Shown: positions 5,150 through 10,410 of the stretch, piece after piece
How positions within the stretch are numbered: position 1 is the first letter of the stretch
Layout: every line of letters begins with the position of its first letter
From: a virus
Lineage: Duplodnaviria > Heunggongvirae > Uroviricota > Caudoviricetes
Length of the DNA stretch: 32,883 nucleotides
Direction: 5' to 3' (one strand)
IMG/VR virus record: IMGVR_UViG_2802429220_000015
The notes under the pieces: generated by a model
Database searches by the model: none
Told to the model about the DNA's origin: nothing
Seen by the model: only the letters and a program-made list of their open reading frames with translations
Made by a program: the position numbers and the translations under genes

Positions 5150-5383
5150 ATGCATCAGGATATCAAAGAGTACAGAGCCGGAAATAGTTGCGCGGCGTAT
5201 TCGCTGGGCGCGTCCAGAGCAGAACAACGCGGCGATTATGCCGAGGCTGAAAAGTTGTGGCGTAAGGCAGCGCAAAGCCCGTGTAGCACCCTGCGCCGCA
5301 TCTGGGCTGAACATCGTGCGGAGTTCTGCGCTAACGCTCACCTGAAGGGATGGAGGCCACGCCATGAATGCGAAGAACTTTAA
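5150..5383 (+). CDS. Hypothetical small protein (weak resemblance to PerC-like regulators)
   Basis: 77-aa product from the internal ATG of track ORF 5039..5383 (MHQDIKEYRAGNS...); segment GDYAEAEKLWRKAA loosely recalls PerC-family proteins. Confidence 0.4.
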   Translation: MHQDIKEYRAGNSCAAYSLGASRAEQRGDYAEAEKLWRKAAQSPCSTLRRIWAEHRAEFCANAHLKGWRPRHECEEL

Positions 5384-5555
5384 TAAGCAGTATCCGCCAG
5401 GGACTCGCTTCATGCACACGGCACATCCGGCGTTGCGCGGTGGCCGGGTGGTGAAAACCGTTGCACCGGCCAGAGATTTTAAATGTGGTTGTGTGGTTGA
5501 AATTAATGTCGAGCCTTATTTCGTAAAAGTCGAAACACTGAAAGCAGCGCATTAA
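5364..5555 (+). CDS. Hypothetical small protein
   Basis: 63-aa ORF overlapping the end of the previous gene. Confidence 0.4.
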   Translation: MNAKNFNKQYPPGTRFMHTAHPALRGGRVVKTVAPARDFKCGCVVEINVEPYFVKVETLKAAH

Positions 5556-5585
5556 TTTAATTCGTTTTTAATTGTTATTTAAAAC

Positions 5586-5623
5586 AGGCGTAAACCCGCC
5601 GGGGCTGGCTTACGCCTGAATCT
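5586..5623 (+). repeat. Intercistronic stem-loop element, copy 1 (GGCGTAAACCCGCCGGGGCTGGCTTACGCCTGAATCTG)
   Basis: 38-nt sequence identical to 6663..6700; stem GGCGTAA/TTACGCC, then CTGAATCTG, then RBS and the start of the 5630 gene. Confidence 0.8.
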
Positions 5624-5629
5624 GGAGAA

Positions 5630-6022
5630 ATGAAAATGAGCGTTACCGTTATCAATGAAATGCTTGGGTGTAAATTCGATAAGGTGTTTACGAATCAAAG
5701 CGCCGAACTTGTTTTTTGTGGTGAACGCCATGGGGATGGCTGGGGTGTTGTATTTACGTTTTTCCACTTTCAGGAATGTTGTGAAAACGTCTGGATTGAA
5801 GACATTGTTGGCGACCTGACAGACCTGGAAGGAGCTGTTCTCACCGAAGCGGAAGTTGTAACTGAATCCAGTGATACAGAAAACGGTAGCCAGACGTGGT
5901 CATTCTTTAAGTTCGGGACATCAAAAGGTTGTGTCGTTGTCAGATGGTGCGGTGAAAGTAATGGTTTTTATTCCGAGCGAGTTTCGCTGAAGCAGCAATT
6001 AACTGACGTTCTGGATTTTTAA
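5630..6022 (+). CDS. Hypothetical acidic, Cys/His-containing protein (accessory)
   Basis: 130-aa ORF; visibly more AT-rich than flanking genes; acidic stretch EDIVGDLTDLEGAVLTEAEVVTESSDTENG. By my base counting the ATG is at 5629 and there is a 1-nt mismatch with the track frame; track coordinates used. Confidence 0.55.
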   Translation: MKMSVTVINEMLGCKFDKVFTNQSAELVFCGERHGDGWGVVFTFFHFQECCENVWIEDIVGDLTDLEGAVLTEAEVVTESSDTENGSQTWSFFKFGTSKGCVVVRWCGESNGFYSERVSLKQQLTDVLDF

Positions 6023-6043
6023 TTCTTATTCATGACTTTTTAT

Positions 6044-6073
6044 GCCGCAGGTAAACAGGTCTGCGCCTGAATC
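6044..6073 (+). repeat. Intercistronic stem-loop element, degenerate copy (CGCAG-GTAAACAGGT-CTGCG + CCTGAATC)
   Basis: Shares GTAAAC in the loop region and CGCCTGAATC with the two 38-nt copies; followed by AAGAGGA and the ATG at 6088. Confidence 0.6.
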
Positions 6074-6087
6074 AAGAGGATTTGTAT

Positions 6088-6633
6088 ATGAAAGATAAAG
6101 TCTGGGATTTTATTGTTACTCCTGAAGGTTTTGCTACCCGTTCATCTGAGAAATTAACCAATGTAACGTTATGGGCGTCATCATTGCTGGGCCATCTGGG
6201 AGCACCTGCCGATTTTATGCATGTGGTACTTGATGCGCAGATTGCCGGAAATGCTGTGGCCAGTAAGGGGGCTTATATTCAGGGGGATTTGTTCGCCATG
6301 ATGGCGAATGACACAGCAGCGCTGTATATCGCCACACGGAACATGCTGACAAGAATATCCATGCTGTCTGACTGTAAGGATATGGAAGACCTCGCATACA
6401 TCCTTGAAGATGATTTGCTCACTATTTCAGGTGTGCAGGAATCCCTCCCGCGTCAGTTGCGGTTTATTGACCTGATGGAGTCATATAAAGATAAGCCTGA
6501 TTTTTTTCAGATTCGATTCAGTGGAATGGAACTGCTGGATGAATATTATCCGCTGGATTCGATTTCCCGTGATGTGAAGGCGTTCGTAAAGTCTGTTGAC
6601 CGCCATTACCGGAAAGCTGAACGTCGTAGTTAA
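6088..6633 (+). CDS. Hypothetical protein (accessory)
   Basis: Track ORF starts at a TTG at 6082; the ATG at 6088 has AAGAGGA 7 nt upstream. AT-rich relative to neighbours. Confidence 0.55.
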   Translation: MKDKVWDFIVTPEGFATRSSEKLTNVTLWASSLLGHLGAPADFMHVVLDAQIAGNAVASKGAYIQGDLFAMMANDTAALYIATRNMLTRISMLSDCKDMEDLAYILEDDLLTISGVQESLPRQLRFIDLMESYKDKPDFFQIRFSGMELLDEYYPLDSISRDVKAFVKSVDRHYRKAERRS

Positions 6634-6662
6634 TAAGTCTGTTTTTAATTTTGTTTGTATAT

Positions 6663-6700
6663 GGCGTAAACCCGCCGGGGCTGGCTTACGCCTGAATCTG
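6663..6700 (+). repeat. Intercistronic stem-loop element, copy 2
   Basis: Exact 38-nt repeat of 5586..5623; followed by GAGGGA and the ATG at 6712. Confidence 0.8.
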
Positions 6701-8656: not shown

Positions 8657-8723
8657 TTAAATAATAACCAATAGCAGACCAAAATATATGTTTTGGTCTG
8701 CCAAAAGCGATGTTTTGGTCATT

Positions 8724-9002
8724 ATGAAGATTGAACAAATCGGAATGGCAGCCTTCCGGCAGCAGGCTGAAAGCGGTGGCGTGGATGAGTTCGTCGTGCA
8801 GAGGTTCGGTGGTGTGTATCACCTCTTCGCTGTGAATCGCCGCGCTGGTGTGTCTTATTTTCTACAGGAACGCCGTGGCGATTACAAGACGTGGCTGTCT
8901 CTTGACCGTGCCGCCGCGTTCCTGTCAGGGATTGGCGTTTCACGTTTTACCGTGCGTTTTGAGGATAACAAACATGCTGAAAAAGATGATCGGAGCCATT
9001 AA
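8724..9002 (+). CDS. Hypothetical protein
   Basis: Track ORF begins at 8688, but that ATG lies in the loop of a strong hairpin (8674..8701); the next in-frame ATG (MKIEQIG...) is used. Start is uncertain. Confidence 0.4.
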   Translation: MKIEQIGMAAFRQQAESGGVDEFVVQRFGGVYHLFAVNRRAGVSYFLQERRGDYKTWLSLDRAAAFLSGIGVSRFTVRFEDNKHAEKDDRSH

Positions 9003-9372
9003 AGCCGGTCAGGCGTATCTGGGGTGGGATGATGTCCTTTATCGCCAGACGCTGGCCCGCCTGACCGGTAAAACCAGCACCACACGCTGCAACCTCGATG
9101 AACTGCGCATCATCCGGGAATACATGCACGAACAGGGATTTCCGCGCAAAGCACCCGCCGGTAAAGGTCGCCGCCCCCGTGTTGCAATGAGCAGAAAATC
9201 AGTATTATCCAAAATTGAAGCGTTGCTGGCTGATGCCGGTCGTTCCTGGGCATATGCAGAAGGGCTGGCATCTCACATGTATAAGCAACATGTGATCGAA
9301 TGGCTGACGGATGAACAGCTTTTTGGGGTAATGGTGGCGCTGGTTAAAGATTCAAGAAGGAGAAATCAATGA
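8974..9372 (+). CDS. gemA: GemA-like (Mu gp16-like) regulatory protein
   Basis: 132-aa product from the internal ATG of track ORF 8848..9372, with GAGGA upstream; segment YLGWDDVLYRQTLARLTGKTS matches my recollection of the GemA/gp16 family; position just before mor as in Mu. Confidence 0.65.
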   Translation: MLKKMIGAIKAGQAYLGWDDVLYRQTLARLTGKTSTTRCNLDELRIIREYMHEQGFPRKAPAGKGRRPRVAMSRKSVLSKIEALLADAGRSWAYAEGLASHMYKQHVIEWLTDEQLFGVMVALVKDSRRRNQ

Positions 9373-9848
9373 TGAAAAAATGGTTGTTTTGTTTAGTAGG
9401 GGTTATTTTCTCTTGTTCTGCGTTGGCTCAGACAGAGGAACAGGCGCAAAAGGAACTGAAACGTTATCAGGATATGAAACCACAGGTTGAGCAACTTCTG
9501 AGGGAAAGCCTGAAACTCTATTATGACATGCCAGACGCTGCATCAGAATATAATAACGGTAACCCTGAAAAATGGCGTAAGGTCATAACAGGCCTGAAGG
9601 AATTCGATAAACAAATAGAGAAAATTGGCGGTAATGGCTTCGATCCTGTTTATAGTTCCTGTGTAAATATGGGGATTCAACTACAGGATTACTGGTCTAA
9701 CGTCCTCGGCAACAACAAACAGTTTCTCGAGCGTTCCAGAAGTTTGTTTATACAGGATCGCATGGATTGCTTTGATCAATTCGTCTTTGGTAAAGAACGT
9801 ATAGAGGCCAGAAAAGACCTTGCCATTGTTAATGTCTGGGATGAATAA
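9369..9848 (+). CDS. Secreted or periplasmic protein of unknown function (moron)
   Basis: 159-aa ORF with N-terminal signal peptide (MMKKWLFCLVGVIFSCSALA-QTEE); strong AGGAG RBS; markedly AT-rich compared with the rest of the window; followed by an intrinsic terminator. Confidence 0.7.
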   Translation: MMKKWLFCLVGVIFSCSALAQTEEQAQKELKRYQDMKPQVEQLLRESLKLYYDMPDAASEYNNGNPEKWRKVITGLKEFDKQIEKIGGNGFDPVYSSCVNMGIQLQDYWSNVLGNNKQFLERSRSLFIQDRMDCFDQFVFGKERIEARKDLAIVNVWDE

Positions 9849-9853
9849 ACAGG

Positions 9854-9880
9854 AACCTCCGCAAACGCGGAGGTTTTTTA
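9854..9880 (+). terminator. Rho-independent terminator
   Basis: Stem AACCTCCGC / GCGGAGGTT with AAAC loop, followed by TTTTTTA. Confidence 0.8.
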
Positions 9881-9884
9881 TGAA

Positions 9885-9915
9885 CTGTACAGGCGATCAT
9901 GTATGGCTATAATAA
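9885..9915 (+). promoter_or_regulatory. Candidate promoter for the mor-like gene
   Basis: TATAAT hexamer at about 9908..9913 with no good -35; palindrome CTGTACAG at about 9885..9892. Confidence 0.4.
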
Positions 9916-9942
9916 CAGTAAGTTACTACCGGAGACGCCATC

Positions 9943-10410
9943 ATGCAGACCTTCAGTGAAACAGATCTTCGCGATGCGCAGGTACTGCTGCCCGATTCCG
10001 TACAGCAACTGATTAGCGTGATTGGCTTCCCCGCCCTGACCCGGTTAATCCGTTCTTTTGGTGGCGTGACGTTAAGCGGTAAAACCGGCGCACACGCCGG
10101 ACGCACCGGCGGTGTCCATGCCCTGTTACATGACGTGCTGACCGAAGACGAAATCAACAAATTGATCCGCTTTCTTGGCGGTGCACCGTTTTACATTCCT
10201 CGTTGCGATCATGCGTTACGTGCCCTGCGTAACACCCGTTTTATGGCTGATTTACAGCAGCATGTAAAAGACGGATGCTCACACCGGCAGGCGCTGGCAC
10301 TACTCTGTCCCCGTTACGGGATTTCAGACCGGTACGCATGGCAACTGATACACCGACGACAAAAACAGACTTCGCTGAAAAGCCCCACCCAGGTGGGGCT
10401 TTTTGATTAA
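9943..10410 (+). CDS. mor: Mor/C-family transcription activator
   Basis: 155-aa product; segment RFLGGAPFYIPRCDHALRALRNTRFMADL aligns by eye with Mu Mor (KHLGGGQVYIPRGQALDSLIRDLRIWNDF, from memory); C-terminal HTH-like region. Confidence 0.8.
   Translation: MQTFSETDLRDAQVLLPDSVQQLISVIGFPALTRLIRSFGGVTLSGKTGAHAGRTGGVHALLHDVLTEDEINKLIRFLGGAPFYIPRCDHALRALRNTRFMADLQQHVKDGCSHRQALALLCPRYGISDRYAWQLIHRRQKQTSLKSPTQVGLFD
10379..10405 (+). terminator. Rho-independent terminator overlapping the 3' end of the mor-like gene
   Basis: Stem AGCCCCAC / GTGGGGCT with 4-nt loop, followed by TTTT. Confidence 0.7.

Follow-up and report, generated by a model that had tools for sequence, protein, structure and literature searches.

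The DNA analysed here, referred to as the window, is the whole of IMG/VR virus record IMGVR_UViG_2802429220_000015 (32,883 nucleotides, Caudoviricetes), which is an Escherichia coli Mu-like prophage. The open reading frame (ORF) at 9369..9848 on the + strand, located between the backbone genes gemA and mor, is a functional but dispensable gene. The slot that it occupies, where the early (transposition/host-takeover) operon has its 3' end, is prone to exchange. It encodes a 159-aa protein of an orphan, uncharacterised family, termed here the cargo family, and the protein is predicted to be exported. This genetic and protein description is, as a whole, very probably correct. The explanation favoured for the function, in which the protein acts in the periplasm during phage replication, is more tentative; taken as a whole, it is somewhat more likely to fail than to hold.

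Slot states in E. coli prophages

The preliminary description had proposed that the ORF is an inserted cargo gene, on the ground that mor directly follows gemA in phage Mu. The Mu locus (L033) does have this arrangement, and comparison with close relatives agreed with the proposal. Slot states were surveyed in 5,426 complete E. coli genomes, 58 of which contain the gemA-mor backbone; these were grouped by match span, and fetched loci were checked. The slot is empty in 18 of the 58, with the gemA stop, the terminator, and mor in succession (checked on L005 and L006); strains F163 and tcmA_3 are examples of this state. The window allele of the cargo family was found in 11 genomes, and a second allele, as in enteropathogenic E. 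coli (EPEC) E2348/69 (checked on L003), in 12. The family thus occupies 23 of the 58 backbone prophages, with two alleles that are 67% identical. The remaining genomes contain unrelated ORFs in the slot, one of 112 aa (12 genomes; checked on L002 and L007) and one of 174 aa (5 genomes; checked on L004, strain M8). The last ~9 codons of gemA also vary by slot state in the alignment.

All three cargo proteins begin with a signal peptide by a rule-based reading. The signal peptides of the other two are MKKLLLLILTLCFTGISHA, followed by SD, and VKSKIINSIIIGSLLLSTPVFA, followed by DW. Kinship among the three families was ruled out, as the signal peptides alone align and the mature parts are unrelated. 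No direct or inverted repeats were found flanking the cargo. This ruled out insertion by a mobile element, and the slot content is therefore presumably exchanged via recombination in the conserved flanks.

The 112-aa cargo (L002:3467-3805) matches phrog_5882, and has a weak Sel1-like motif and two conserved Cys residues. Its homologue in the Mannheimia Mu-like phage vB_MhM_3927AP2, gp15 (L023:1337-1684), is located just 3' of gemA, between annotated terminators; this position suggests that the 112-aa family is equally faithful to the slot. In addition, two of the 58 backbone matches, both with an empty slot (NZ_OZ547097.1 and NZ_OZ547049.1), lie on plasmid records of about 249 kb, indicating that the Mu-like element resides in large plasmids too.

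Base composition

The gene had been described as strikingly AT-rich relative to its neighbours, and this was reproduced. The guanine plus cytosine (GC) content of the cargo ORF is 40.8% (42.5% at third codon positions), compared with 51.9% for gemA, 53.8% for mor, and 54.1% for the whole window. This value falls within the lowest 0.6% of all 480-bp stretches of the window. The homologues are 5-17 GC points under their own 1.5-kb flanks in all ten loci examined, and both alternative cargos are GC-low as well. Low GC in all ten loci and in both alternative cargos points to a standing property of the cargo pool, and not to a recent arrival. Low GC is thus no proof of recent acquisition, as homologues with identities down to about 21% are without exception lower in GC than their own phages. 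Taken together, the results support the view that the cargo gene is an optional accessory gene that is foreign in composition.

Position and evolution across Mu-like phages

Homologues of the cargo gene lie between the GemA and Mor genes in L008-L013 and in Haemophilus phage SuMu. In L015, L016, L019, and Klebsiella phage ST405-OXA48phi1.1, they lie directly 3' of Mor and 5' of the lysis genes, and the L017 homologue lies 5' of a holin gene. The L015 homologue is placed between a first Mor gene and a second Mor-family gene, the second of which is nearer to the mor of the window. Every homologue that has genomic context sits at this one regulatory boundary of a Mu-like phage. Among Mu-like phages of Enterobacterales and Pasteurellaceae, the cargo family thus recurs as the gene placed last ahead of the early terminator or of the following promoter. 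It is old and position-faithful, and not a one-off insertion. The preliminary description had named a conserved core gene at this position as the finding that would speak against a cargo gene. The gene is not core; yet its family is of long standing at exactly this boundary, where it recurs in diverse Mu-like phages.

The cargo gene varies much more than its surroundings. Between the window and E2348/69, identity is 99% for GemA, 98% for Mor, and 67% for the cargo protein; between L008 and L013, it is 97%, 99%, and 29%, respectively. The synonymous divergence (dS) between the window and E2348/69 is 1.2 in the cargo gene and about 0.1 in the flanks. Within the gene, dS is 0.19 in the signal-peptide codons, which is backbone-like, and 1.66 in the mature part. 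The ratio of nonsynonymous to synonymous divergence (dN/dS) between the alleles is 0.12-0.17. This ratio and the existence of homologues show that the ORF is genuinely a gene. An origin of the hypervariability in rapid positive selection was rejected, since dN/dS of 0.12-0.17 together with dS > 1 points to old alleles that were reshuffled, and not to a fast-evolving sequence. The sequence comparisons thus show that the alleles are old, are under purifying selection, and were reshuffled by recombination onto near-identical backbones, with a junction just past the signal peptide.

The encoded protein

The ORF of 159 aa was read as predicted, with its ATG (9369-9371) overlapping the TGA of gemA (9370-9372) in an ATGA. 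It was assigned to an orphan family of predicted exported four-helix bundles on the basis of its homologues, dN/dS, GC content, and an AlphaFold2 model. The signal peptide was called by rule, from n/h/c regions and small residues at -3/-1. The N-terminus consists of MMKK, a 13-residue hydrophobic core (WLFCLVGVIFSCS), and ALA followed by Q, which fits the rules for signal peptidase I (SPase I) and agrees with the signal peptide noted in the preliminary description. The signal peptide covers residues 1-20 (MMKKWLFCLVGVIFSCSALA, followed by Q) and is encoded at 9369..9428 (+). The same n/h/c layout with small -3/-1 residues is present in 18 of 18 family members. There is a single N-terminal hydrophobic segment, and the protein ends at residue 159. 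The IFSC of the window protein resembles a loose lipobox. A lipoprotein (SPase II) identity was rejected, because Cys16 is not conserved across the family; it is replaced by Phe, Thr, Gly, or other residues in P0006, P0007, P0010, and P0012-P0019.

The mature protein, of about 139 aa, is encoded at 9429..9845 (+). Four residues, G64, C98, W109, and C134, are invariant in the 18 members down to 21% identity, and a C-terminal (D/E)LAI(V/I)xV motif is also present. The AlphaFold2 model is an up-down helical bundle, with a predicted local distance difference test score (pLDDT) of 80.5 and a predicted template modelling score (pTM) of 0.70. Its helices span residues 21-62, 67-85, 93-112, 117-139, and 141-157. 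The model places C98 and C134 on helices 3 and 4, respectively, and a disulfide between them, formed in the periplasm, is plausible, judging from their conservation. The SPase I type signal and the two invariant cysteines suggest that the product is most likely a Sec-exported, oxidised, disulfide-stabilised soluble periplasmic four-helix bundle of ~139 residues.

The C-terminal region at 9789-9845 (residues ~141-159), past Cys134, has a Pro/acidic linker and an alternating hydrophobic (D/E)LAI(V/I)(D/N)V segment, which is kept down to 21% identity. This motif has low AlphaFold confidence, and it may serve as a docking strand.

Family size and database searches

The cargo family is very small. 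Only 9 clusters were found among 5.8 billion proteins, in E. coli, Salmonella, Yersinia, and E. albertii, and a profile search returned merely 12 representatives among 1.84 billion proteins. A scan of the species-representative genomes of GTDB detected no family member, and megablast and tblastn searches against a phage collection did not find the cargo gene. Profile comparison alone revealed the members in the Klebsiella phage and SuMu. QBA84959 of Klebsiella phage ST405-OXA48phi1.1 is a family member (profile comparison 96.6%, E 6e-10), and so is the gp15 product of Haemophilus phage SuMu, when it is read from the internal start MKKSLL... (hhalign 97%, E 8e-11).

The annotation of SuMu gp15 (L022:1471-2325, YP_007002923) places its start within gemA, 5' of a terminator; the real start is probably internal, at MKKSLLCLFILSSVAMA. 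The COG3023 note on this record also seems unfounded.

The homology and structure search suggested earlier gave homologues in Mu-like phages, but no annotated family and only generic folds. Pfam, PHROGs, NCBIfam, and PADLOC gave no significant match to the cargo protein. Weak matches to Isy1 (Pfam), phrog_823, and hemophore-related entries were under the cut-off and were rejected. No PADLOC defence profile matched the cargo protein or the 112-aa alternative cargo. The PDB profile search returned designed helical bundles alone (E >= 0.001), and Foldseek returned generic four-helix bundles with no structure match at E <= 1e-3. In the literature, the RefSeq protein accessions were mentioned in no paper.

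Terminator, promoter, and expression

The cargo gene is preceded by gemA (8974..9372, +), the upstream backbone gene of the gp16 family (Pfam GemA, 3.5e-18; 'gp16 family protein' in the RefSeq record of strain 08-00022). A Shine-Dalgarno sequence AAGGAG was read at 9357..9362 (+), within the 3' end of gemA and 6 nt 5' of the cargo ATG. An intrinsic terminator lies at 9852..9881 (+), with a hairpin at 9854-9875 and a T-run at 9874-9879. The hairpin begins five bases past the cargo stop and has a GC-rich stem of 9-10 bp followed by a T6 run. Its centroid energy is -17.4 kcal/mol (range -17 to -19), with z = -5.98, and 0 of 200 shuffles were as stable. The terminator is followed by a promoter-like site TGTACA-16-TATAAT at 9886..9913 (+), with 10/12 consensus matches, and by the Mor-family activator gene at 9943..10410 (+), the downstream backbone gene (Pfam Mor, 1.9e-6; RefSeq annotation).

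The strength of the terminator is as claimed in the preliminary description, but the view that it is the gene's own is not supported. In the alignment of slot states, the hairpin and T-run are found in every state at the same place, the empty slot included. The hairpin occurs in two sequence variants, whose distribution does not follow that of the cargo: the window allele and the 112-aa cargo have one, and the E2348/69 allele, the 174-aa cargo, and the empty slot have the other. Between the T-run and the ATG of mor, a stretch of 75 bp that includes TGTACA-16-TATAAT is invariant in six E. coli prophages. The presence of the hairpin and promoter-like site in all slot states suggests that both are backbone elements and not cargo-specific; the terminator after the cargo would be the early-operon terminator of the backbone. 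A similar layout is found in Mu, where the mor stop is followed by a hairpin with a T-run and a promoter region (L033:1669-1760), as in window 9846-9943. In both phages, the last early gene is thus followed by the hairpin, the T-run, a promoter region, and the next operon. The difference is that the last early gene of Mu is mor, which encodes no exported protein, and that of the window is the cargo gene, with the sole Mor-family gene behind the terminator.

Several other observations were made on these signals. The sole Mor/C-family gene of the prophage sits behind the early terminator with a seemingly good sigma-70 promoter. The CTGTACA...TATAAT core is retained in L008, L012, and L013, where Mor is merely 65% or 38% identical. 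The sequence TATAATAACGGTAA within the cargo gene (9549-9562, coding YNNGN) has a 13/14 match to the -10 region of the promoter-like site of mor (9908-9921); this match is probably due to chance, and there is no -35 at proper spacing. In phages with the family 3' of Mor, the following spacer contains 2-3 copies of an ACTGAAC(A/C)CC-like motif, and then a hairpin and T-run ending at the next ATG (L015:4469-4560, L016:2664-2755, L017:739-872, L019:4454-4532, and L024:3423-3504). This spacer may be a Mor-dependent promoter region.

The preliminary description had left expression either to the lysogen or to early infection. A consensus scan of the + strand at 8665-9886 found no sigma-70-like site. 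The lack of a promoter-like site, and the coupling to gemA, suggest that the cargo is the last cistron of the early operon. Judging from this layout, expression of the window gene would probably follow induction or infection, and the repressed lysogen would probably not express it. Early expression is therefore favoured, and expression from the lysogen as a strict moron is not supported.

The arrangement differs in other lineages. In L012, the homologue lies between two terminators, with a 130-bp AT-rich spacer containing a weak promoter-like site (9/12); this site is not above chance, as about 2 such sites are expected in that stretch. The SuMu homologue and the 112-aa cargo of Mannheimia phage 3927AP2 are also bracketed by two terminators, with spacers of about 50 bp and about 47 bp, respectively, which leave little room for a promoter. 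The cargo family thus appears in two formats, a stand-alone 'moron' and an operon-fused form, and the window copy appears to be the fused one.

Comparison with known systems

Few phage proteins that act in the periplasm are understood, the main examples being Spackle, Sim, Llp, Cor, and RI. P1 Sim and Cor of phi80/N15 are exported phage proteins that block receptors or DNA entry, and the Tip/Aqs1 proteins of Pseudomonas Mu-like phages are pilus-blocking proteins of the early operon. The T5 Llp protein, which is also exported and acts on the envelope in this manner, is made early (PMC9586334; bioRxiv preprint on the FhuA:Llp complex). Llp and Cor are lipoproteins, unlike the cargo family, which has no conserved lipobox Cys. 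The cargo protein matched no annotated exclusion family in PHROGs.

T4 Spackle (Sp) is an early periplasmic superinfection-exclusion protein (PMC7677548). Both Spackle and the cargo protein are small, helical, Sec-exported, and periplasmic, and are made early in lytic growth from a dispensable gene; these features are predictions for the cargo protein, and the helical fold of Spackle is taken from the literature. The Spackle precursor has 97 aa, it is absent among the fold matches listed for the cargo protein, and its target, the tail lysozyme gp5, has no identified counterpart here. Homology to Spackle was rejected, as hhalign aligned the signal peptide alone (probability 28.6%) and no PHROG match was obtained. 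Homology to the T4 antiholin RI was likewise rejected (hhalign probability 0.3%).

The slot also resembles lambdoid morons and the genomic plasticity regions (RGPs A-I) described in Pseudomonas Mu-like phages (PMC4378225). In each case, one extra GC-poor optional gene separates two genes that close relatives have side by side, at a site with varying cargos. The window copy differs in that it has no promoter of its own, its terminator appears to belong to the backbone, and the ATGA overlap fuses it to the early operon. Moreover, the cargo family is faithful to one slot across distant Mu-like lineages and is not recent, and all three cargos are predicted to be exported.

With respect to fold, the model resembles sensor domains of the 4HB_MCP type (Tar, PcaY, NarQ, and QseE). 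The likeness is one of fold only, and the matches are not statistically specific. Since the cargo protein lacks both a second transmembrane helix and any cytoplasmic module for signalling, it would be a free soluble bundle. At E <= 0.1, no Pfam family of the 4HB_MCP type was matched; the unrelated weak Isy1 entry was the sole match.

Possible functions

Superinfection exclusion, or protection from lysis from without, during lytic growth is the most likely function, possible but doubtful in itself. The gene would be transcribed and translated together with gemA from the early operon after induction or infection. The product would then be exported by the Sec pathway and form a disulfide-stabilised soluble bundle, which might bind an envelope component or a component of an incoming phage during phage replication. 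The infected cell would be shielded from superinfection or from lysis from without, or the progeny would be shielded from the receptors of the cell. This role is likened to those of Spackle, Sim, and Llp for T4, P1, and T5, respectively. The preliminary description had proposed exclusion or envelope modification in the periplasm, and this proposal is plausible.

Several points weigh against this explanation. Neither experiment nor homology ties the cargo protein to any function. Export was judged by rule, and the disulfide from conservation alone. The fold matches are generic, and the sequence is unrelated to those of T4 Spackle and RI. An exclusion protein made from a repressed early operon alone would leave the lysogen unprotected, which weakens the usual selection argument for prophage cargo. 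Furthermore, the cargo lies between two terminators in L012, SuMu, and 3927AP2 (112-aa family), so the timing of expression may vary by lineage.

A role in periplasmic host takeover or counter-defence is rather unlikely. Here, the soluble bundle would bind a host envelope protein and blunt the envelope stress response, or an anti-phage defence at the envelope level, during lytic growth. Candidate partners would be the lipoprotein partner of a sensor kinase, a PDZ protease, or a Tol/Ton component, but no partner was identified. The fold matches are not significant (none in Foldseek at E <= 1e-3), and any four-helix bundle would typically give such matches. The helix of the signal peptide, which was kept in the model, also mimics a first transmembrane helix and biases the matches to sensors.

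It is unlikely that the protein is a lysogenic-conversion factor, that is, a true moron whose product benefits the host from the resident prophage. The benefits might be resistance to other phages, colicins, serum, or envelope stress, or the product might be a virulence-associated periplasmic protein. The foreign base composition and the presence/absence polymorphism are consistent with such a role, as are the L012 homologue between its two terminators behind the AT-rich spacer and the similarly bracketed cargos of SuMu and Mannheimia phage. Carriers include EPEC E2348/69, and some slot-state relatives are isolates named STEC (Shiga toxin-producing E. coli). However, in the window and its E. 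coli and Salmonella relatives, there is no promoter-like site and the gene overlaps gemA. The 9/12 site of L012 is within chance expectation, and the SuMu and Mannheimia spacers scarcely fit a promoter.

A regulator of lysis timing is quite unlikely. Such a protein would postpone or adjust lysis from the periplasm, by binding either the part of a holin exposed there or an endolysin tethered to the membrane. T4 RI acts in this way on the holin T. The cargo protein is small, helical, and predicted to be periplasmic, as RI is, and the lysis genes of the window (two holins and an M15 peptidase) begin about 1 kb downstream. In distant phages, the gene lies directly 5' of the lysis cassette, next to a holin in L017/L018, an amidase in L019, and a GH19 endolysin in the Klebsiella phage. 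This adjacency is explained by the fact that mor adjoins the lysis genes. The endolysins of the carriers are unrelated and of five types (M15, GH108, GH24, Amidase_2, and GH19), and their holins are varied (Phage_holin_8/3_7, holin_2_1, and Holin_2-3). The unrelated lysis proteins among the carriers indicate that there is no constant partner. Close relatives with identical lysis genes have an empty slot or an unrelated cargo, and the RI comparison gave no similarity.

Finally, a neutral passenger or non-gene, an AT-rich filler ORF kept by hitch-hiking, is highly improbable: the gene is dispensable and its family tiny, but the low dN/dS at dS > 1, the invariant Cys, Gly, and Trp residues and signal peptides held down to 21% identity, the position conserved across phages of Enterobacterales and Pasteurellaceae, and the confident AlphaFold fold all speak against it.

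Other features of the window

The first 12 kb of the window are 99.9% identical, over 92%, to a prophage of E. coli strain 08-00022. The annotation of that prophage includes a repressor, Mu transposase, AAA ATPase, DUF3164, gp16/GemA, Mor, holins, and Mu-type head genes; the queried gemA-mor segment is 100% identical. A second plasticity region lies in the early operon at ~5150-6700, where about 1.08 kb is missing from the otherwise 99.9% identical 08-00022 prophage. This region contains an ORF at 5630-6022 of DUF7448 (2.6e-17) and an ORF at 6082-6633 with no family, and its GC content is 0.41-0.49. Rfam gave no match anywhere in the window, which ruled out the cargo region as a non-coding RNA.

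Biological implications

In most respects, this gene is of a known kind, the accessory cassettes in phage plasticity regions (PMC4378225); the predicted export of all three slot cargos is the more interesting feature. Without an envelope phenotype, the cargo gene would be an ordinary accessory gene with no known role. A broader idea, which is itself more likely wrong than right by a good measure, is that Mu-like phages have a dedicated 'periplasmic accessory locus' at the 3' end of their early operon, a fixed recombination slot in which unrelated Sec-exported proteins replace one another as cassettes. If this were true, the locus would swap the four-helix-bundle family, the 112-aa Sel1-like family, and the 174-aa family, each of which would block a different envelope-level process, such as the entry of competing phages or a host defence that acts in the periplasm. 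It would correspond, at the envelope, to the anti-CRISPR locus of Pseudomonas Mu-like phages. The four-helix-bundle family would then be its most widespread member, with old alleles held by frequency-dependent selection.

Three unrelated proteins, all predicted to be exported, and an empty state compete for one slot on near-identical E. coli prophages, including that of the EPEC reference strain E2348/69. These slot variants are natural isogenic comparisons, and they provide a small set of genes for the study of superinfection exclusion, lysis control, and interference with envelope signalling.

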